From the IMG/VR virus record IMGVR_UViG_2585427734_000004: a stretch of 22,017 nt of DNA. One strand, 5' to 3'. The notes beneath the pieces were generated by a model that was given only the letters and a program-made list of their open reading frames with translations, ran no database searches and was not told where the DNA came from. The stretch is from a virus. Lineage: Duplodnaviria; Heunggongvirae; Uroviricota; Caudoviricetes. Made by a program: the position numbers and the translations under genes. Shown piece by piece: positions 1,449-19,397 of the stretch. Every line of letters begins with the position of its first letter. Position 1 is the stretch's first letter.

Positions 1449-2105
1449 CTATTTAACATACTTGACTGTTAAACTTATAATTTTACCAATTATTTCAATG
1501 TCTTCTATCTTGCATTCGAAGGCTCTGTTTCCACCCTCGACGAAGATTCTTCCACCGGGTAAACGAGTAATGTCACGGATCGTTATTTCGCCATCAATAC
1601 TTATTACCCATTTACCATCACGTATATCATCAAATTCTTTATCACAAATAAATTCAGAATTGTTATCTGTGATGACAAAAGGTTTTTTAAACGTAGAGGG
1701 TAGAAATCCCTTATCAAAAATATAAAAACCGTCTTTCTGCAATGCTCCATCAGACAATAAATATTTTTCTACTTCTATAGTATTTGTATTTGCTGATGCT
1801 TGCTTTGAACCATGCCCTGTTGTTAGCCAATTAAGCGAGGTGCCCGTTTCAAGGGCGCACTGGATTACCCAATCTGCTGGAAAAATATCACGCATATAGC
1901 GCGTTGCCATGGTGCTCTTAGAAACACCTAAATGATCACAGAGAGCCTGACGAGTACCGAACCCATATGCTTCAACTAAACGTTCTATGGCTTTCTTACC
2001 GCCGCTATTGAAATCCACAAGTCCTCCAAAGAAATCCAAAATTCGTTGACAGATTCCAAAAGCGATCTTAAAGTTGAACCAGAAGTGTTCTTTTGGAGCC
2101 TTCAC
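1449..2105 (-). CDS. CI-like immunity repressor (HTH)
   Basis: Transcribed divergently from the early operon, directly upstream of int as in phage 186. HTH-like segment QALCDHLGVSKSTMATRYMRD. Apparent GTG start at 2105. Confidence 0.7.
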   Translation of the reverse strand: MKAPKEHFWFNFKIAFGICQRILDFFGGLVDFNSGGKKAIERLVEAYGFGTRQALCDHLGVSKSTMATRYMRDIFPADWVIQCALETGTSLNWLTTGHGSKQASANTNTIEVEKYLLSDGALQKDGFYIFDKGFLPSTFKKPFVITDNNSEFICDKEFDDIRDGKWVISIDGEITIRDITRLPGGRIFVEGGNRAFECKIEDIEIIGKIISLTVKYVK

Positions 2106-2948: not shown

Positions 2949-3245
2949 ATGCTGACGAAAGAACCATCATTTGCATCGCTGCTGGTAAAACAAAGCCCGG
3001 CAATGCACTACGGTCACGGCTGGATCATGGGTGAGGATGGTAAACGCTGGCATCCGTGCCGTTCACAAGATGAATTGCTGTCTGAATTGACCACGGGGAA
3101 ACGGAGAAAGTCAAAATGTATGCAGCGGAAAGTGAAGTGGATTATCAGTTTCGTTACAGAGGGGAGAGTTATTCAGTACCTGAAGATGATTTGCTCTGTT
3201 GTTATCCGTCGTTGTCGGGCGATGGCAGTTACTTTTTCACGCTAA
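2949..3245 (+). CDS. Hypothetical early protein (its 3' part overlaps the next ORF in another frame)
   Basis: ATG 2949 with GTGAGG RBS. The first ~55 aa look protein-like; the remainder overlaps ORF 3116-3340 and looks like an out-of-frame read. Confidence 0.3.
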   Translation: MLTKEPSFASLLVKQSPAMHYGHGWIMGEDGKRWHPCRSQDELLSELTTGKRRKSKCMQRKVKWIISFVTEGRVIQYLKMICSVVIRRCRAMAVTFSR

Positions 3246-3340
3246 AGGATGGGACGTTTTTACGGGGAGAGCAGGTTAAAGAGACGATACGAAAAAATGT
3301 ATCTCCTCTTGAACGTTACCGTAAGAACAAAGAACGATAG
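3116..3340 (+). CDS. Hypothetical small acidic early protein
   Basis: 74-aa ORF with GGAG upstream and natural composition; sits where fil/orf78-like genes lie in P2/186. Confidence 0.45.
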   Translation: MYAAESEVDYQFRYRGESYSVPEDDLLCCYPSLSGDGSYFFTLKDGTFLRGEQVKETIRKNVSPLERYRKNKER

Positions 3341-3362
3341 TTGCGTTTTGGGGATATGAATT

Positions 3363-4232: not shown

Positions 4233-4531
4233 CAGGGGCTGTGCGTATCCATCAATTAAAAATTGCACCTAAGTATTTCAACGCTGTGGTTGCAGGTCAA
4301 AAGACGGCTGAACTTCGTAAAGACGATCGTGGCTATAAAGTTGGTGATGTTCTTTCTCTTTGCGAATGGAAGCATGGCGTATTTACGGGTAGGGAATGGG
4401 CCGCGGTTATCTCTCATGTGCTTCCGGTTAATGACGTGATGGCAGTTTCAGAACAATGGGTGATGCTATCAATTCGCTCATTAACCCCATTAGAAGCTTT
4501 AGGATATGTTATTGCAGGAGGTGCTGTATGA
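4229..4531 (+). CDS. DUF3850 / ASCH-like (PUA-fold) protein
   Basis: N-terminus [33 protein letters not shown] resembles the DUF3850 signature; ATG overlaps the upstream stop (ATGA). Confidence 0.6.
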
Positions 4532-8540: not shown

Positions 8541-8585
8541 GCGTAGATCATGCAGGTGCATGAAAACCACTACATAAAGCGGGCA

Positions 8586-8605
8586 GGCGTGGCGGGGATA
8601 CGAGC
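8586..8605. other. Possible cos-site remnant
   Basis: GGCGTGGCGGGGA matches, from memory, the first 13 nt of the 186/P2 19-nt cohesive end; the next 6 nt diverge. Not verified against a reference. Confidence 0.3.
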
Positions 8606-8612
8606 GCGCGCC

Positions 8613-8647: not shown

Positions 8648-8850
8648 GCTCTTTAGTGTAGGAACATTGGTTCCAGCCGGGTGATTAGCCAGGCTTAAAT
8701 TTATTGTCCGGTTTAGGGTTGCGAAAGACACAGATTTCTCCTTCGCATCCCTGCCCGGGGCAGATATGCGAAGGAGAAATCTGTGTCTTTCGCTGTCTTT
8801 AGTGAAGAGTCAAAGCGCTATGTAAAGTTGCATAGCGCTTTGGTTTTAAG
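8648..8850 (+). ncRNA. Candidate retron msr-msd non-coding RNA
   Basis: Structured non-coding region immediately 5' of the RT: small hairpin ggaac-attg-gttcc (8661-8674), the 73-nt perfect palindrome (8721-8793) and a 12-bp-stem hairpin (8811-8842). Boundaries and the a1/a2 repeats are not resolved. Confidence 0.5.
8721..8793. repeat. Perfect 28-bp inverted repeat with nested ctgccc/gggcag palindrome (73-nt hairpin)
   Basis: 8721-8748 gcgaaagacacagatttctccttcgcat is the exact reverse complement of 8766-8793; read directly from the sequence. Confidence 0.9.
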
Positions 8851-8859
8851 AGGGGTTAT

Positions 8860-9795
8860 ATGCAACTAACTTCTAAAATTATCAGTAAGTTTAATTATAA
8901 TAGATTAGCTTTCCAATTACTTTTAAATGAGGCCCCCAAAAAATATAAAGTTTATTATATTCCTAAACGTGGCGCAGGTTTTCGGGTGATAGCTCAGCCG
9001 ACAAAGGAACTAAAAAACGTACAGAGATTTATAGTATCTTTGCTACAGCCAAAGCTGCCTGTTCATCATAAGGCAATGGCATATGAATATAAAAAAAGTA
9101 TTAAAGATAATGCATTGTTGCATAAAGATAATAATTATATTCTTAAAATGGATTTTCAGAACTTCTTTAATAAAATTAAACCTGATATATTTTTCTCGAA
9201 ACTTGAGAACACAGGGCTGAAATTGGATTCATTTGATGAGAACACCCTACGTAATTTGCTTTTTTGGCGTCCGGGAAAAAAGAGAAGTACAACGTTGATA
9301 TTAAGTGTAGGGGCGCCAAGCTCACCATTTATTAGTAATTTTGTTATGTATGACTTTGACAAGAGTCTTGATGATTGGTGCCGTAACAATGGTATCACTT
9401 ATTCAAGGTATGCAGATGATATAACTTTTTCAACTAATATTAAGGATATATTGTGCAGGGTTCCTAAGGTGGTAAAAAAAATGTTGTCGCTCCATGTTCC
9501 CGGTCTATCAATCAATGAATCTAAAACAATTTTTACATCGATGGCTCATAATCGGCACGTGACTGGTGTAACACTTACACCTCAGGGCAATTTATCAATT
9601 GGTCGCGATCGTAAAAGGATGCTGTTTGCAAAGATTCATAAATATTCTTTGGGACTCTTATCTTCCGAAGAAATAAATAAAACCAAAGGGATGATTGCGT
9701 TTGCAAATTATTTGGAGGGTGATTTTTTATTAAGGTTACAAAAAAAATATGGTTGTGAGTTAATAACTAAGTTCCTGATGGAAGGAAACAAATAA
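8860..9795 (+). CDS. Retron-type reverse transcriptase
   Basis: 311 aa; YADD catalytic motif (SRYADDITFS), upstream FQNFFNKI, RT-like GAPSSPFISN; AAGAGGGG RBS; AT-rich codon usage. Confidence 0.85.
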   Translation: MQLTSKIISKFNYNRLAFQLLLNEAPKKYKVYYIPKRGAGFRVIAQPTKELKNVQRFIVSLLQPKLPVHHKAMAYEYKKSIKDNALLHKDNNYILKMDFQNFFNKIKPDIFFSKLENTGLKLDSFDENTLRNLLFWRPGKKRSTTLILSVGAPSSPFISNFVMYDFDKSLDDWCRNNGITYSRYADDITFSTNIKDILCRVPKVVKKMLSLHVPGLSINESKTIFTSMAHNRHVTGVTLTPQGNLSIGRDRKRMLFAKIHKYSLGLLSSEEINKTKGMIAFANYLEGDFLLRLQKKYGCELITKFLMEGNK

Positions 9796-11429
9796 TGATA
9801 AATAAAATGAATTTAGAGACTTGCTATGTTGATTTTTTAGAGTTGGAATCACATGTGATAAACGAGGATTATTTGAAGGAGTCTGTTGAGCTTCAAAAGC
9901 TAATATCTACTTTAAATGAGAGTAAGTTTCATTTAAATAAAATAGGTATACATGATTTTAAACGGATAAGAGAACTACAGATTTCCTTAGAAGATGATTT
10001 GACTGTTTTTGTCGGGGATAACGGATTCGGTAAAAGCACTATTTTGGATGCAATAGCAATTGTTTTGAGTTGGTTGAGATCAAATATTGAAAAGGAGAGT
10101 AAGCCTGGTACTTATATTAAAAGCCATGAAGTTAATAACTCTGTTGATGTTGAGTATGCATCAATTGATGCAAATATAAAACTTAAGGACTTTAATACCA
10201 GTATTTTGATTACTAAAGCGAAAGAGGGGGCATATTATTCTAGAAATAATGAATTGTTGGAGGTAAAAAAACTTGCAAGTATTTATAGACTTGTGAATAA
10301 ATATGTTGATAATGCAAGCTTGCCTTTGATGGCATATTATTCTATTGCGCGTTCTTATATAGGCGGTGGGGTTGATAGGAAAAGAAAAAATGCTAAAACT
10401 AAAACTGTATGGTCAAAATTCGATGTGTATGATGAAATCGAGTTTGACAGAAATGATTTTACCGATTTTTTTCAATGGCTTGTATTTCTTCATAACAGAG
10501 CTTCACAAGAGAAATTGAGTGAGTCACAAACGACAATCAATGCGTTATTTTCAGATATTCAAAGTTTGAAAGCAACATTAACTCAACTATCTGCGATTGA
10601 TAATATTGATTCAACAGTTATAAAAGGTTTAGAGCTTTCGCTTAAAGAAAAATTGAACTACATGAAATCTCTGCAATCAGGAGAACATAAGTTTAATAAT
10701 GCAGTATCACTTTATGATAGTGTTATAAATACCATTCTAAAGTTCTTGCCTGAATTTCAGTGGATTAAGCTTGTTTATGGTGATGATGATTATAAGATTA
10801 TCCTTAAAAAAGGAGAGGTTGAATTAGATGTTCAACAGTTGTCTCAAGGTGAGAAAACTATATTTACTTTAGTTGGTGATTTGGCTCGACGTTTAATTTT
10901 ACTTAATCCAAATTTATCTAATCCTCTATTGGGATATGGGATTGTTTTAATTGATGAAATTGATTTGCATTTGCATCCGCAATGGCAACAGACAATTATT
11001 GAGCGTTTGACATCTACATTCCCAAATGTTCAATTTGTAGTTACTACCCATAGCCCACAGGTTTTATCCACTGTTAGCTCTCGTTCAGTGCGTATTCTAC
11101 AGGAAGTGGAAGTAGATGGTGTTAATGATTTGATAGTGTCTCACCCCGACTATCAAATAAAAGGTGTTAGTAATCAGGATGCACTTTTATATGGAATGAG
11201 AACTGATCCTATACCCTCTACTAAAGAAAATGGTTGGCTTGAAGAATATAAAAAATTGGTTGAGCTTAATCGTTATAGCAGTGACGAGGCTCTTTTGTTA
11301 AGAGAAAAAGTTATTAAACATTTCGGATTAGACCATCCTTTAGTTCAAGAGTGTGATGATCTTATATCTGTTTTGGAGTTCAAAAATAAGATAAATCAGC
11401 ACTTTTCTGGAAGTAAGGATGTAAAATGA
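9795..11429 (+). CDS. ABC-type ATPase (Septu PtuA-like) retron effector component
   Basis: Walker A GDNGFGKST, signature LSQGEK, Walker B VLIDEIDLHLHP, H-loop VVTTHSP, with a long helical insert; start overlaps the RT stop. Confidence 0.8.
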   Translation: MINKMNLETCYVDFLELESHVINEDYLKESVELQKLISTLNESKFHLNKIGIHDFKRIRELQISLEDDLTVFVGDNGFGKSTILDAIAIVLSWLRSNIEKESKPGTYIKSHEVNNSVDVEYASIDANIKLKDFNTSILITKAKEGAYYSRNNELLEVKKLASIYRLVNKYVDNASLPLMAYYSIARSYIGGGVDRKRKNAKTKTVWSKFDVYDEIEFDRNDFTDFFQWLVFLHNRASQEKLSESQTTINALFSDIQSLKATLTQLSAIDNIDSTVIKGLELSLKEKLNYMKSLQSGEHKFNNAVSLYDSVINTILKFLPEFQWIKLVYGDDDYKIILKKGEVELDVQQLSQGEKTIFTLVGDLARRLILLNPNLSNPLLGYGIVLIDEIDLHLHPQWQQTIIERLTSTFPNVQFVVTTHSPQVLSTVSSRSVRILQEVEVDGVNDLIVSHPDYQIKGVSNQDALLYGMRTDPIPSTKENGWLEEYKKLVELNRYSSDEALLLREKVIKHFGLDHPLVQECDDLISVLEFKNKINQHFSGSKDVK

Positions 11430-12109
11430 AATATCTATCTAGGCAAATGCCAGGGCCTTCCGTTCTTAATAAATTTGACTATAGGAGGGATGATTGGAAT
11501 TCCCTATCATCAAATGATAAAAAAGAAATATGGGAAGAAATAATAAAAATGCAAGGTAAATTATGTGCTTATTGCGAGAAAAAAATAGAGCATCATAAAA
11601 GTGGTGACAAAAATAAAGTTGAGAGGCATATTGAGCATTTTTACAGGAAAAGTTATTACAAAAATTTAACTTTCGAGTGGTCTAATTTGTTTGGCTCATG
11701 TGGTGAGCCGCAAAGGTGTGGGTTTTATAAGGATAAGCAAAAATATAACGATGATGATTTAATTAAAGCTGATAGACAAAATCCAGATGTTTTTTTCCAT
11801 TTTTTGGAAAATGGTGATGTTCATATTAGAGAAGGCTTGAATGAGAAAGAACACAAAATGGCAGAGGTTACGTTAAGAGTATTTAACTTAAACCCGTCCT
11901 CAGGAGGAGTCAAGGCGGAAAGAAGACGTGCAATAGAATTAAGCATGACATTAATAAAGGAACTGGTCGGATGTGCATCTCAGCTTATTGAATCAGGATG
12001 TGAAATTGAAGATGTTAGATCTATGGTCTTTGATGAGTTTAAAAAGAATGTAAAAGATAGATGCTTTACCACTGCGATAAAGCATGTTTTTGAGAATAGA
12101 ATGCCTTAA
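11426..12109 (+). CDS. HNH endonuclease (PtuB-like) retron effector component
   Basis: CAYCEKK...HIEHF HNH-like Cys/His motifs; ATGA overlap with the ATPase stop. Confidence 0.75.
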   Translation: MKYLSRQMPGPSVLNKFDYRRDDWNSLSSNDKKEIWEEIIKMQGKLCAYCEKKIEHHKSGDKNKVERHIEHFYRKSYYKNLTFEWSNLFGSCGEPQRCGFYKDKQKYNDDDLIKADRQNPDVFFHFLENGDVHIREGLNEKEHKMAEVTLRVFNLNPSSGGVKAERRRAIELSMTLIKELVGCASQLIESGCEIEDVRSMVFDEFKKNVKDRCFTTAIKHVFENRMP

Positions 12110-12190: not shown

Positions 12191-12652
12191 TCATGGATTT
12201 TTTTTTTGTAGAGGTACTAATTCATTTGTCACAAAAACCTTACTAGCTTTCTCCACATCCCCAAACCCCCCAACATTATTCGGCATAATCCCCATCATTT
12301 GCGGCGGCACACGGTGTGCCGCCATCATGTCGTCCCGGCTCACGTTCTTGATATTCAGAAATTCATCCTTCGCTGCAACTTCTGACAACGGGATGATCTG
12401 AAGCCCGTCCTTTTTGCCGTTAGGCGAGTACATAAACAAGTTACGGAAGTTGCCCGGTCCTTTGGCGCTTTTCATCGCGTTGCGGAGGTTGTTCACATCC
12501 TCCTGGTTCTGCGCGGCGTCAGTCATATACATGATGAAGCCTGCATGACTGCCGTTAATGTAATACTTGCGGCGGAACAGCGTGGCGGACTCGTTGAGCA
12601 GGGCTGACGGAATGGCAGAAAGATAAGTTTTTTCTAACGGAGCACGGCTCAT
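12191..12652 (-). pseudogene. Capsid portal (gpQ-like) C-terminal fragment; terminase gene absent
   Basis: Minus-strand ORF whose 5' end overlaps the O start codon, leaving no P-O intergenic promoter; no Walker A, so not a terminase N-terminus. The Q assignment is by position and elimination. Confidence 0.35.
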
Positions 12653-13500: not shown

Positions 13501-13890
13501 ATGAAGAAGAATACCCGCTTTGCTTTTAACGCTTACCTGCAGCAACTGGCACGTCTGAACGGTGTGGCAGTTGAAGAACTGTCCAGCAAGTTCACTGTAG
13601 AGCCGTCTGTGCAGCAGACGCTGGAAGACCAGATCCAGCAGTCCGCCGCTTTCCTGACGCTGATTAACGTCACGCCAGTGCCTGAGCAGTCCGGTCAGCT
13701 GCTGGGGCTGGGTGTTGGCAGCACCATTGCCGGAACCACTGACACCACCGCGAAAGAGCGTGAACCTGTCGATCCGACGCTGATGGTCGATGTGGAATAC
13801 AAATGCGAACAGACCAACTTTGACACGGTGCTGACCTACGCGAAGCTGGACCTGTGGATCAGGCAACGCCGCGCACTAACGGTGATCTGA
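13501..13890 (+). pseudogene. N: Major capsid protein gpN, N-terminal ~120 aa only
   Basis: TRFAFNAYL...NGV...SKKFTVEPSV...LDLW matches the recalled P2 gpN N-terminus (TRFKFNAYL...KKFTVEPSV...LDLW), then diverges and stops; full gpN is ~357 aa. Confidence 0.6.
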
Positions 13891-13974
13891 ACGCGTTGCT
13901 GGATGAAACGGAGGCCGCCTGGGCGGTCTGTGCAGACAAAGTGGACATGATTATTGCGTGTCAGGAGCGAAACA

Positions 13975-14406
13975 GTGAACAAACCACAATCCCTGCGCCA
14001 CGCCCTCAATAAAGCAGTGCCTTATGTCCGCAATAACCCGGACAAACTGCATCTGTTTGTGGATAACGGTTCGCTGGTTGCCACGGGGGCCAGCTCCATG
14101 TCATGGGAGTACCGCTATACCCTGAACGTGGTGATTGAGGATTTCAGCGGCGACCAGAATCTGCTGATGGCCCCGGTTTTGCTGTGGCTGCGGGATAATC
14201 AGCCTGATGCCATCAATAACCCGGCGTTACGGGAAAAGTTATTCACCTTTGAGGTGGATATTCTGCGCAATGATGTCTGTGATATCAGCCTTAACCTGCA
14301 ACTGACGGAGCGTGTGCTGGTCAGCACTGATGGCAGTGTGTCGAGTGTTGAAGCTGTAGCGGAACCCGATGAACCTGAAGAAATGTGGACGGTGAAACGT
14401 GGCTGA
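13975..14406 (+). CDS. R: Tail completion protein gpR
   Basis: GTG 13975 with AGGAG RBS; KPQSLRHALNKAV...NPDKLHLFVDNGS...LWLRDNQPD resembles recalled P2 gpR (KPDSLRRALTDAV...NPDMLRIFVDNGS...AWLRENQPD). Confidence 0.7.
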   Translation: MNKPQSLRHALNKAVPYVRNNPDKLHLFVDNGSLVATGASSMSWEYRYTLNVVIEDFSGDQNLLMAPVLLWLRDNQPDAINNPALREKLFTFEVDILRNDVCDISLNLQLTERVLVSTDGSVSSVEAVAEPDEPEEMWTVKRG

Positions 14407-14845
14407 ATTGCAGAAGGTGGACGGCTGGTTGAGTGCCTTGCTGGCGAATCTGGAGCCAGCCGCAAGAAGCCGTATGATGCGCCAGCTGGCGCAAGAACTG
14501 CGCCGGACACAGCAGCAGAACATCAGGATGCAGCGCAATCCAGATGGCAGTAGTTATGAGCCGCGCAGAGTAACAGCACGCAGCAAAAAGGGGCGCATCA
14601 AACGTCAGATGTTTGCAAAGCTGCGCACCAAAAAATACCTGAAAACTGCCGCCAGCGCCGATTCTGCCAGCGTGCAGTTTGAAGGTAAGGTGCAGCGCAT
14701 TGCCCGCGTTCATCACTACGGCCTGCGTGATCGTGTTAGTCGTAAGGGGCCGGAGGTACGTTATGCTGAGCGGCGGCTATTGGGTTTCAACGATGAAGCT
14801 ACTCTTCAAATTAAGACAATTTTATCTAGTTACTTAATGGGGTGA
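14399..14845 (+). CDS. S: Tail completion / virion morphogenesis protein gpS
   Basis: GTG start overlapping the R stop; LEPAARSRMMRQLAQELRRTQQQNI...PDGS...GRIKRQMFAKLR...IARVHHYG fits the gpS virion-morphogenesis family pattern. The 3' end runs into AT-rich insert sequence. Confidence 0.7.
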   Translation: MAELQKVDGWLSALLANLEPAARSRMMRQLAQELRRTQQQNIRMQRNPDGSSYEPRRVTARSKKGRIKRQMFAKLRTKKYLKTAASADSASVQFEGKVQRIARVHHYGLRDRVSRKGPEVRYAERRLLGFNDEATLQIKTILSSYLMG

Positions 14846-14937
14846 AGATTCATGCTTTTGCTAGCTTCTACAAGGTTTTATGCTTCTAAACACTGTATGT
14901 TTAATTTGACATATAACTATTTGTACAAGCGGTGAGT

Positions 14938-16161
14938 ATGAAAAAGCAAGATGAGTCCCCCAAAGCTGATAAATCAAATTTAGATAAAAGTGAGTCTGAA
15001 CCACCAAAAGCGAACTCTATGGCAGATGCCATGGCCATAGCGGCAGAGGTTGCTACGACAGCAACGTCAGTTCAAACATCAACCTTTGCAATTATCGCGG
15101 ATTTTCTACGTTCAGGTGGTATAGAAAAACTAACTTCAAATGCTATCAAAAATTTAGAAATAAAAGTAAAGGGCCATTCTCAAGCGACAAGAACTACGGT
15201 ATTGAGGAACCTGAAGACCTCTTTCAAAGAGGAGAATTTAGTTCTTGTTTTAGGTGCTGGCATTTCTTTAGATTACAGCATACCAACATGGAGTGAATTA
15301 TTAAAGCGGCTATTGGCAAGAGCTTTGGATGATAAAAATGAAAATCAGAAAATGGTATCGGTTTTGTTTAATGAGGTTTTCGGTCCGAACGCACTCATAG
15401 CAGCCAGATATCTAAAACTACACTTTGATGGTATTAATACTCCCTTGGAAAAAGAAATTCAGCATGTTTTGTATGAATATTATCAGGAGGAAGAAAGCAG
15501 TACATTGAAAGCAATCAAGAAATTGTGCATATCGGCAGGCAAGTCACCAGGTCTAGATTCCGTTATTACATATAACTATGATGATATTTTGGAACAGACA
15601 TTAACTAGAGCTGATGTTGGTATAAAGTATAAGGTGATTTCAAAGACGGGACAGCATGCAAAAAATGATGAACTGCCGATCTACCATGTGCATGGCTATC
15701 TCCCATTGCAGGGGAAAGTTGAACTCGATGACACGCTAGTCCTTTCTGATGAAAGCTATCATAGGCAATACATGGATTTATACCATTGGAGCAATATGGT
15801 TCAGTTGAATAAATTCAAAGATGGTAATTGCCTGTTTGTTGGTCATTCCTTTACAGATCCAAACCTCAGAAGGTTGATGGATACAGCCAAAAAACTTAGA
15901 GGGAATGATTCTAAACCTCATTATTTAATTAAGTGTAGACATTCGAAAGAAGATGTGATTGCTAATATTCAAAGAATTGTTAGTGACTCAAGAAATGGAT
16001 TTGATAATAAACTGAATATTAATGAGGATGCAATCGCGACCTCTCTTTTACAGACAGTGCATACTTTTGAAGAAATCGATGCTAATTCATTTGGCGTGAA
16101 TGTTATTTGGATCGACTCTTACGATGAGATTGCACCAATACTTAATGATCTAACACAATAA
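14938..16161 (+). CDS. SIR2-family (SIR2_2-like) protein, candidate NAD+-depleting defence effector
   Basis: LVLVLGAGISLDYSIPTWSELL (GAGxS), VITYNYDDILEQ (TxNYD) and PIYHVHGYL (HxHG) motifs; low-complexity K/E/S/A/T-rich N-terminal ~90 aa; AT-rich gene in a GC-rich tail cluster. Start could also be GTG 14932 or ATG 15019. Confidence 0.75.
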   Translation: MKKQDESPKADKSNLDKSESEPPKANSMADAMAIAAEVATTATSVQTSTFAIIADFLRSGGIEKLTSNAIKNLEIKVKGHSQATRTTVLRNLKTSFKEENLVLVLGAGISLDYSIPTWSELLKRLLARALDDKNENQKMVSVLFNEVFGPNALIAARYLKLHFDGINTPLEKEIQHVLYEYYQEEESSTLKAIKKLCISAGKSPGLDSVITYNYDDILEQTLTRADVGIKYKVISKTGQHAKNDELPIYHVHGYLPLQGKVELDDTLVLSDESYHRQYMDLYHWSNMVQLNKFKDGNCLFVGHSFTDPNLRRLMDTAKKLRGNDSKPHYLIKCRHSKEDVIANIQRIVSDSRNGFDNKLNINEDAIATSLLQTVHTFEEIDANSFGVNVIWIDSYDEIAPILNDLTQ

Positions 16162-16238
16162 TCTCCCTAAGTTGTGCCAGAAATGGCACAGCTTTAAATC
16201 CTATCCTAATGACGGCAGCATTTGGCAATCTAATTGCC

Positions 16239-16454
16239 ATGAACGCTCAACTAACAGAAATCATGCGCCTTATCACCAATCTGATCCGCACTGGTGTAGT
16301 CACCGAAGTGGACCGGGAAAACTGGCTTTGTCGGGTGAAAACGGGCGACCTTGAAACCAACTGGATTAACTGGCTGACACTGCGCGCGGGCAAATCGCGC
16401 ACCTGGTGGAAAACTCACCATCGACTACGACTACACGCCAGTGCCGCCACTTGA
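16239..16454 (+). pseudogene. V: Baseplate spike gpV, N-terminal fragment
   Basis: [42 protein letters not shown] matches the recalled P2 gpV N-terminus (IRTGIIVETD...CRVQTG...WLQWLTHRAGRSRTWW), then diverges after ~60 aa and stops. Confidence 0.55.
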
Positions 16455-16524
16455 AAATCTGATGCTGCGCCAGCGCATCACCGATCAGTACCTGGTGAAT
16501 TTCGCAAGCCAGGTCAGCGCGTAA
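16387..16524 (+). pseudogene. Possible tail sheath (FI) C-terminal fragment
   Basis: A second frame reads ...[36 protein letters not shown] and stops 10 bp before the FII start with an RBS, the geometry expected for the end of FI. Identity is inferred from position only. Confidence 0.3.
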
Positions 16525-16533
16525 GGGGACAAC

Positions 16534-17049
16534 ATGGCTTTACCACGCAAATTAAAACATCTGAACCTGTTTAACGACGGGAACAACTGGCAGGGGATCG
16601 TTGAGTCGCTGACGCTGCCGAAATTCACCCGCAAATATGAGAAGTATCGCGGCGGCGGTATGCCGGGGGCGGTGGATGTGGATCTGGGACTGGATGACAG
16701 TGCACTGGATACAGAATTTTCCATTGGTGGTACCGAACTGCTGCTGTTTAAGCAGATGGGCAAATCCACGGTGGATGGCATCCAGTTGCGCTTTACCGGC
16801 TCTATCCAGCGTGACGATACCGGGGAAGTGCAGGCCGTGGAGCTTGTGGTGCGTGGACGTCACAAAGAAGTGGATTCCGGCGAGTGGAAGACGGGCGAAA
16901 GCAACACCACCAAAGTGACCAGTACCAACAGCTACGCGAAGCTGACCATCAATGGTGAGGTGCTCTATGAAGTGGACCTTATCAACATGGTGGAAATTGT
17001 GGACGGTGTGGACCTGATGGAAGCGCACCGCAACGCCCTCGGCCTCTGA
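16534..17049 (+). CDS. FII: Tail tube protein gpFII
   Basis: MALPRKLKHLNLFNDG...RGGGMPGAVDVDLGL...RDDTGEV...VRGRHK matches recalled P2 FII; AAGGGGA RBS. Confidence 0.85.
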   Translation: MALPRKLKHLNLFNDGNNWQGIVESLTLPKFTRKYEKYRGGGMPGAVDVDLGLDDSALDTEFSIGGTELLLFKQMGKSTVDGIQLRFTGSIQRDDTGEVQAVELVVRGRHKEVDSGEWKTGESNTTKVTSTNSYAKLTINGEVLYEVDLINMVEIVDGVDLMEAHRNALGL

Positions 17050-17103
17050 TGTATCTGAACGGCGCGGGATACCGCGCCAGAACCCAATTTACAGGACAAC
17101 AAA

Positions 17104-17406
17104 ATGAGCGATAAGCAGACTGAAAAGACCATTCAACTGGATACCCCTATCAAGCGCGGTAAAACGGAAATCACCGAAATTGTGCTGCGTAAGCCGCAGT
17201 CCGGTGCGCTGCGCGGCACGCGCCTGCAGGCCATTATGGATATGGATGTGAACGCGATGATGACCGTGATCCCCCGCATTTCCAGTCCGGTACTGACTGC
17301 ACAGGAAATCGCAGAGATGGACCCGGCAGATCTCACCGCTATGTCGGTTGAGGTTGTCACTTTTTTGTTGAAGAAGTCGGTGCTTGCCGGTTTACCGACA
17401 GCCTGA
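17104..17406 (+). CDS. E: Tail assembly chaperone gpE
   Basis: 100-aa ORF after FII containing the TTTTTTG slippery heptamer near its 3' end, the expected E/E' arrangement. Confidence 0.75.
   Translation: MSDKQTEKTIQLDTPIKRGKTEITEIVLRKPQSGALRGTRLQAIMDMDVNAMMTVIPRISSPVLTAQEIAEMDPADLTAMSVEVVTFLLKKSVLAGLPTA
17361..17367 (+). promoter_or_regulatory. Programmed -1 frameshift slippery site TTTTTTG (E to E')
   Basis: Heptamer located 37 nt before the E stop; the -1 frame is open from here to 17756. Confidence 0.6.
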
Positions 17407-17420
17407 CGGTTGACGATCTG

Positions 17421-17756
17421 GTGGCAGACATCGCCACCATTTTTCACTGGCCGCCATCCGTTACTGACGTTATGCCGCTGGAGCAGATGGCAGAACAGGG
17501 GAAAGCATGGCCTCTGATTGAAGGCAGCGGCACGATTTACGGCATGTATGTGATTGAGGGACTGAATCAGACTAAAACGGAGTTTTTCCGCGACGGTATG
17601 CCGCGCCGGATTGAGTTCACCCTGTCGCTCAAACGGGTGGATGAATCCCTGTCCGATATGTTCGGTGATCTCAGTGCGCAACTGAATAATCTGCAGGAAA
17701 CGGCAACATCTGCTTTAAGCGATATCAGTAAAACGGTGGGAGGGCTGCTGTCGTGA
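17421..17756 (+). pseudogene. E' extension continuing into a tail-protein U-like C-terminal segment; tape measure gene T absent
   Basis: -1 frame relative to E with no stop from 17361 to 17756; ends in a GTGA overlap with the D start. Only ~130 codons lie between the E slippery site and D, where P2 has T (~815 aa) and U. Confidence 0.45.
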
Positions 17757-19184: not shown

Positions 19185-19397
19185 TCATTAAAAAACAGTG
19201 CTTCTAACATCATGATTTTAAAAGGCATAAATTTCAGGCAACAAAAAACCCATCAACCTTGAACCGAAATGGCGGGGGTGATGGGCTCCACAAAATGGGG
19301 ACATCAAAGAAAAGCAGTGGCACTAATTAAGACTGATGCCCTGCGGAAAAGTTCTGCGGTTGTGCAAAAAAATTTCATTTTCAGGGCAACTTCAGTT

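Follow-up and report, generated by a model that had tools for sequence, protein, structure and literature searches.

How the beginning of one tail gene came to stand directly before the end of another, and whether the composite is still a gene, are the questions raised by positions 16239 to 16530 of the DNA analyzed here, a 22,017-nt stretch referred to as the window. An earlier note had read this region as an N-terminal fragment of gpV joined to a short piece of FI that ends before the ribosome-binding site of FII, and both protein and DNA matches confirm this arrangement, with coordinates that are right to a few bases. An identical sequence is found within contig JOSQ01000083.1 of the draft genome GCA_000713775.1 (E. 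coli 8-415-05_S1_C2); the window begins at the end of a phage integrase gene, extends to grxA and includes a P2-like prophage adjoining ybjL. The region very probably resulted from a single illegitimate deletion, mediated by microhomology, in a P2-like prophage of the Cartapus/Elveevirus type inserted at rybB/ybjL. It is composed of the following elements.

16239–16412, plus strand: gpV', codons 1–58 (M1–K58) of V, the gene of the baseplate spike; covers only part of the N-terminal OB domain
16408–16412, plus strand: junction J3, a 5-nt microhomology (GGAAA) common to V and the closest FI relatives
16413–16454, plus strand: out-of-frame tail of the V' open reading frame (ORF), 13 codons of misread FI DNA followed by TGA (16452–16454)
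16408–16524, plus strand: 'FI relic, the last 38 codons and the TAA of the tail sheath gene FI
16525–17049, plus strand: native FI–FII spacer, with a GGGGA ribosome-binding site at 16525–16529, and FII

The best complete relative of the element is the SC475 prophage (NZ_LR778148.1; locus L002), which lies between rcdA and ybjL and displays the full P2 gene order. The ATG at 16239 maps to the start of its V coding sequence. Residues 3–57 of gpV' align with residues 5–59 of P2 gpV at 51% identity (E 2e-19), and the fragment matches the Pfam family Phage_base_V (PF04717) over profile positions 1–48 of 75 (31 bits; cut-off 23.8). At the DNA level, positions 13855–16412 are 99.77% identical to the S–SIR2–V stretch of the SC475 prophage, which includes lysB/C, R, S, SIR2 and the beginning of V. 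The homology of V to SC475 ends at 16412, directly after the codons for R-T-W-W-K, in agreement with the loss of similarity that had been placed after RTWW at about 16413. A full-length gpV (approximately 192–211 aa) contains a complete OB domain and a C-terminal spike/apex, and the intact relatives encode a gpV of 192 aa with Phage_base_V and Apex; V', by contrast, holds 58 V codons only.

On the other side of the junction, the segment 16408–16521 encodes a sequence 74% identical to residues 358–395 of P2 FI (E 1e-19), the extreme C-terminus of the protein; the alignment that had been proposed as a check thus returned 38 matching codons. The V and FI similarities lie well outside what chance would produce. 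The DNA from 16408 onwards, covering the FI 3' end and FII, is 97% identical to SC475 and Cartapus and 99.5% identical to strain 504237. The translated piece covers profile positions 79–104 of 104 of Phage_sheath_1C with 16.4 bits, under the cut-off of 26.9, and its sequence match assigns it to the sheath C-terminal domain. A complete sheath gene would include a start codon, the promoter P_F, the N-terminal and middle domains and some 390 aa, none of which the relic displays. As neither a start codon nor an ORF of at least 40 aa exists in its frame, it is presumably untranslated. The FI stop codon (TAA, 16522–16524) is followed by the ATG of the tail tube gene FII at 16534, which is intact (16534–17049, 171 aa, PF04985 Phage_tube). 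Since V' and 'FI carry the sequence signatures of their families yet lack those of complete genes, both are, judged on sequence, pseudogene fragments, that is, dead gene pieces, and probably neither is functional. The 71-aa ORF and the 'FI piece should be annotated as pseudogene debris.

The exact course of the junction emerged from a three-way comparison including the V gene of SC475. The V parent reads TGG-TGG-AAA-CCG, and the FI parent, represented by 504237 and Cartapus, GCC-GGA-AAA-CTC. In SC475, the V side consists of CACCTGGTGGAAA followed by CCGTCT; in the closest FI relatives (strain 504237 and Cartapus), the FI side consists of AAAGCCGGAAA followed by ACTCACC; the window reads CACCTGGTGGAAAACTCACC across J3. 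The phase of GGAAA is [T]GG-AAA in V versus GGA-AA[A] in FI, an offset of one base. As the two copies lie in different codon phases, V' and 'FI are joined out of frame (+1). The V-frame ORF (16239–16454) encodes 71 aa, and this product is present in GenBank as KEO13303.1, with the name 'phage baseplate assembly V family protein'. The different frame that the earlier note had followed to a stop just before FII is the FI frame, +1 with respect to V.

Other ways of drawing the junction were considered. A 2-nt overlap with the FI of SC475, which reads GGGAAAC, was dropped because the FI genes of 504237 and Cartapus read GGAAAAC, which yields one clean 5-nt event, and a 6-nt in-frame crossover followed by slippage of one additional A was rejected on the same GGAAAAC sequence. 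A metagenome scan permitting either A count at J3 returned the four-A form only.

The content of the missing interval can be read from the SC475 prophage, whose genes are arranged as follows.

First half: int, repressor, early genes, methylase, gpA, retron-type reverse transcriptase (RT), AAA ATPase, PtuB, Q, P, O, N, M, L, X
Second half: holin, lysozyme, lysB/C, R, S, SIR2, V, W, J, I, fibre genes, invertase segment, FI, FII, E, E', T, U, D, ogr

SC475 carries a complete V through FI, and both flanks of the window are collinear with it; the comparison with intact relatives thereby supports the earlier proposal that the remainder of V, W, J, I, H, G, the variable G–FI (Z/fun) region and most of FI are missing. 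The loss at J3 amounts to 6,983 bp when measured on SC475 and to about 5.6 kb on a relative that lacks the invertase segment; its size and exact microhomology depend on the relative used, and the true ancestor is not among the sequences compared. Removed were the V remainder, W, J, I, the genes for tail fibres and their assembly, the invertible fibre segment together with the invertase, P_F, and 352 of the 390 FI codons. The V-operon terminator, which follows G in P2, was presumably removed as well.

No extra bases and no IS element are found at J3, and no direct repeat of at least 14 nt links the breakpoints at 24287 and 31266 of the SC475 locus (L002). The region hence combines collinear flanks and a seamless join with a few shared bases, and is free of any long repeat, IS element or recombinase site, as expected for a microhomology deletion scar. 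In the mechanism that we propose, the GGAAA in gpV codon 57/58 would have recombined with the GGAAA located 38 codons before the end of FI, with loss of the intervening DNA, probably through RecA-independent slippage or end-joining at the microhomology. What is left is a V' pseudogene that loses its frame after 58 V residues and runs through 13 nonsense residues to a stop, and behind it a presumably untranslated FI relic that still carries the native ribosome-binding site of FII.

The junction is one of four in the prophage. The other three are located as follows.

12624–12626: junction J1, TAA microhomology; portal gene Q (minus strand) shortened and fused to the DNA 27 nt upstream of gpO
13855–13857: junction J2, TGG microhomology; capsid gene N cut after about 119 codons and joined into lysB/lysC
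17464–17480: junction J4, exact overlap of approximately CTG inside an imperfect match of 17 nt; in-frame fusion of E' to the C-terminal portion of U

All three are seamless, with overlaps of about 3 nt each. With respect to SC475, J1 lost 2,420 bp, including the terminase gene P (ATPase) and both P_P/P_O dyads; J2 lost 3,236 bp, comprising the rest of N, M, L, X, the holin and endolysin genes and most of lysB; and J4 lost about 3.3 kb, including the tape-measure gene T. The J4 fusion produces a chimeric ORF, E'::U (17418–17756, plus strand, 112 aa), that combines positions 1–21 of the GpE profile with positions 63–120 of the GpU profile. An exact look-up of the E'::U protein as a called gene returned no record; its DNA is present in other assemblies. 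The E'::U sequence could be appended to gpE via the natural E/E' -1 frameshift.

Altogether, the four deletions remove approximately 16 kb of head, lysis and tail genes, and the prophage, measured from the candidate att core AACAAAAAACCCAT, is reduced from about 36.5 kb in SC475 to about 19.3 kb. Lacking the genes for portal, terminase, capsid, lysis, baseplate, fibre, sheath and tape measure, the element can neither assemble particles nor lyse its host. Still present are the integrase, the early/regulatory and replication genes (gpA), cos, ogr, a retron-type system and SIR2. The cos site (8554–8611) is 98% identical to the annotated cos of Cartapus, and its retention means that the defective element still has a packaging site. 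The gene for the RybB sRNA (19240–19318, minus strand; 100 bits with Rfam) lies directly outside the prophage. The 14-nt repeat AACAAAAAACCCAT occurs at the rybB 3' end (19240–19253) and also at the left end of the SC475 prophage, and its presence in both places suggests that the phage integrates into the 3' end of rybB. The Rfam search found no family inside the prophage, only the chromosomal RybB.

The retained retron-type system occupies the A–Q (tin/old) site and consists of three genes.

8860–9795: RT
9795–11429: AAA ATPase
11426–12109: HNH PtuB-like protein

In the SC475 annotation, the RT is assigned to the retron St85 family and the PtuB gene is named as the PtuB effector of retron Ec78. 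A self-complementary stretch of 73 nt (8721–8793) upstream of the RT is probably the msd hairpin, and matches no Rfam family. The immunity/early region is a mosaic with respect to SC475, with segments of no or poor match at 1113–2149, 3105–3362 and 4233–4516. The repressor also differs: the window has a 218-aa ORF (1449–2105, minus strand), and SC475 an 882-nt CI gene.

We further analyzed the occurrence of the junctions in other collections. All four 50-nt junction sequences were found exactly in three independent assemblies (L005, L007 and L009), namely the Logan assemblies SRR27204195 and SRR11015007 and the human-gut metagenome contig OWZV01000006, with 99.96% identity over 11–18 kb. This exact recurrence implies that the junctions are real and are inherited in a lineage. 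The truncated capsid protein produced by J2 is present on 83 contigs. J3 was found in none of 5,426 complete RefSeq E. coli genomes, and neither its exact 28-mer nor a relaxed pattern with three or four A's matched the GTDB representative genomes, which means only that the lineage is not a species representative. The scar is restricted to one lineage, in which it is inherited. Intermediates with fewer deletions were found neither among 24 contigs read for the truncated capsid, which represent three places, nor in the two sequences from other samples, which carry J1–J4, nor among the places shown for the SIR2 protein, which are intact but for one unrelated deletion. In SRR11015007, similarity ends at the start of ogr (from position 11555, about 18952 of the window), and genes for a Mu transposase, MuB and Kil follow; this suggests that a Mu-like prophage is inserted into ogr in that sample.

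The deletions also bear on the transcription of the remaining late genes, for which one candidate promoter element remains upstream of V.

16173–16190, plus strand: dyad TGTGCCAGAAATGGCACA (TGT-N12-ACA), the presumed Ogr/activator site of P_V, centred 57 nt upstream of the V ATG

In SC475, TGT-N12-ACA dyads are found upstream of V, upstream of FI (L002 30116–30133) and, in two copies, between P and O. Of these four late-promoter dyads, the window has only the one at V; the P/O copies were lost with J1 and the FI copy with J3. The P_V region is identical to that of SC475; its alignment to P2 is too diverged for the activator site to be transferred base by base. In the P2 RefSeq record, the activator site of pV is located 42–69 nt upstream of V and transcription starts at the first base of V, producing a leaderless mRNA, and a second activator site and the F-operon start are located between Z/fun and FI, with the V-operon terminator after G. 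The motif occurs five times in the window versus 5.5 expected by chance; being no commoner than chance, it leaves the P_V assignment to rest on position and on the P2 annotation. No terminator-like site was found between 16239 and 16534. If Ogr is made, transcription from P_V would therefore be expected to cross V' and the FI relic and to continue into FII–E–E'::U–D, which would now be transcribed from this promoter alone. These genes are thus placed, by position and P2 annotation, under the putative control of the surviving P_V.

Immediately upstream of V lies the second retained defence locus.

14938–16161, plus strand: SIR2_2-domain cargo gene, 407 aa, intact, in the S–V slot, outside the deletion

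The S–SIR2–V arrangement is present in four complete E. coli genomes at 99.6–99.7% DNA identity, where the features include baseplate assembly protein V. The exact 407-aa SIR2 protein occurs in 1,616 blocks of a public collection. Among 25 contigs read, six distinct places are shown, the remaining contigs having been collapsed as similarly neighboured, and in all six SIR2 stands between gpS and a full-length gpV (192–202 aa as called). The late-gene clusters around SIR2 are otherwise complete in these places, barring one unrelated deletion (GCA_949281675.1), and the cargo at A–Q differs between them. It follows from the S–SIR2–V order of intact relatives that SIR2 was in place before the deletion and independently of it. 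Elsewhere the same slot is occupied by orf30 in P2, a 176-aa gene (gp14) in Cartapus and a 283-aa gene in strain 504237. The S–V gap is a recurrent, genuine cargo slot of intact P2-like phages. A match to TGT-N12-ACA, TGTATGTTTAATTTGACA, is located at 14894–14911, 27 nt before the start codon of SIR2 (ATG, 14938), and is shared with SC475; it could be a late-promoter-like site for SIR2 or, with the motif count at the level of chance, a chance match.

Several other explanations of the locus were weighed against a microhomology deletion. If the draft contig had collapsed or skipped tail genes, the true genome would be intact from V to FI, and it is the case that JOSQ01000083.1 belongs to a draft assembly and that no complete E. 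coli genome has J3. The recurrence of an identical J3, together with the other three junctions, in three independent assemblies from other samples speaks against such an artefact; moreover, a 5-nt overlap is far under any assembler k-mer and the 267-kb contig has normal chromosomal flanks, so that we give this possibility practically no weight. The interval that was lost encodes a serine recombinase with inverted crossover repeats, which brings to mind a site-specific deletion by this Gin-like invertase, or else one left by a departed IS element. Nevertheless, the breakpoints fall within V and FI, at distances of 3.3 kb and 1.8 kb from the invertase crossover repeats (L002 27574–27600 and 29419–29445), J3 is seamless with neither an IS remnant nor a target duplication, and three further junctions with the same type of 3-nt overlap affect genes unrelated to the invertase. 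An origin of this kind is hardly conceivable.

A functional chimera would be either a V'–FI protein made through +1 recoding or a 71-aa V' with a new function, for example, P2-like baseplate interference. V' may well be translated, since P_V and the V start are intact and the V mRNA of P2 is leaderless, and the lineage retains the V' ORF. The copies of the lineage, however, are about 99.96% identical, so the retention of the ORF says nothing on selection; V' holds just positions 1–48 of the 75 of the OB profile, no recoding signal was recognized by eye for the +1 FI frame, and the phase of the junction is simply dictated by the GGAAA microhomology. We regard a function of this type as very unlikely. 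Still less can be said for the idea, raised in the earlier note, that SIR2 came to lie at an 'atypical' place between S and V because the Z/fun cargo site was lost. The deleted interval does include the variable G–FI region, and tin/old and Z/fun are named as the two classical P2 hotspots (PMC9122126; bioRxiv 10.1101/2024.10.15.618418). However, the same S–SIR2–V order accompanies a full-length V in the four complete genomes and the six distinct places, contrary to the expectation that SIR2 would occupy S–V only, or preferentially, where G–FI is deleted. The same slot holds P2 orf30, Cartapus gp14 and the 283-aa gene of 504237, the G–FI region of intact SIR2-carrying relatives is a tail-fibre invertase segment rather than defence cargo, and a 2026 survey describes defence hotspots within P2 tail genes besides the classical ones (PMC13586616). 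This explanation is contradicted by the intact relatives and extremely improbable. An explicit mention of orf30 or of the S–V slot was not found in the P2 hotspot literature (PMC9122126, bioRxiv 10.1101/2024.10.15.618418 and PMC13586616). A tempting inference on the position of SIR2 is thus removed, as S–V is a real cargo slot for orf30, SIR2 and others.

The microhomology deletion at J3 is accordingly best seen as one part of a wider decay. The prophage provides an example of rapid prophage grounding, in which all the virion and lysis modules have been lost by four deletions at small microhomologies and two defence loci have been kept. Grounding by deletion is a well-known phenomenon, and the pattern fits prophage domestication. 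Alternatively, the trimmed element of about 19 kb might be a selectively retained defence island or a helper-dependent, satellite-like derivative of P2, which we consider unlikely. With integrase, gpA, cos and ogr kept and the head, lysis and tail genes lost, a superinfecting P2-like helper might package the element, for example, as a dimer. If the satellite or defence-island reading were true, the V'–'FI junction would also rewire FII–E–E'::U–D under P_V.

A comparison with known systems places the deletion scar in a familiar context. Phage Cartapus (NC_070909.1; Peduoviridae, Elveevirus) has the backbone of the SC475 prophage, and the two resemble the element of the window in insertion site, gene order and the retron-type cargo at A–Q, with segments that are 97–99.8% identical; SIR2 at S–V is shared with SC475. 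They differ from the window in having the full V, W, J, I, fibre genes, invertase, FI, T, P, M, L, X and lysis genes. The prophage in GCA_949281675.1 (L015) is also P2-like, carries SIR2 at ybjL, and has lost FI, FII and fibre genes with retention of SIR2 and V. Unlike the window, it has, at 13726–17112, an 85-aa N-terminal fragment of a fibre protein followed directly by an intact tape-measure gene, and has lost G, the invertase, FI, FII and E. Its deletion arose independently and does not represent an intermediate in the lineage of the window, and this different deletion in a prophage at the same site indicates that losses in the tail region recur.

The P2 remnant of K-12 is a defective P2-type prophage that keeps ogrK and a fragment of gpD. 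Cryptic P2-type remnants and the element described here are alike in the loss of morphogenetic genes by internal deletions, the presence of pseudogene fragments, the retention of genes on the ogr/D side and of cargo, and vertical inheritance. In the window, by contrast with such remnants, the decay is recent, with parts that are 99.7–99.8% identical to intact prophages; the four deletions are separate and clean; and about 19 kb are left, among them the integrase, the replication genes, cos and two defence loci. Deletions in E. coli arise through microhomology-mediated illegitimate recombination, or alternative end-joining. The junctions of the window, here characterized from sequence alone, share with such deletions a seamless join, 3–5 nt common to the two parental sites, and the absence of any longer repeat, IS element or site-specific recombination site. 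The V'–'FI junction is an ordinary deletion scar of a decaying prophage, a known kind of event.
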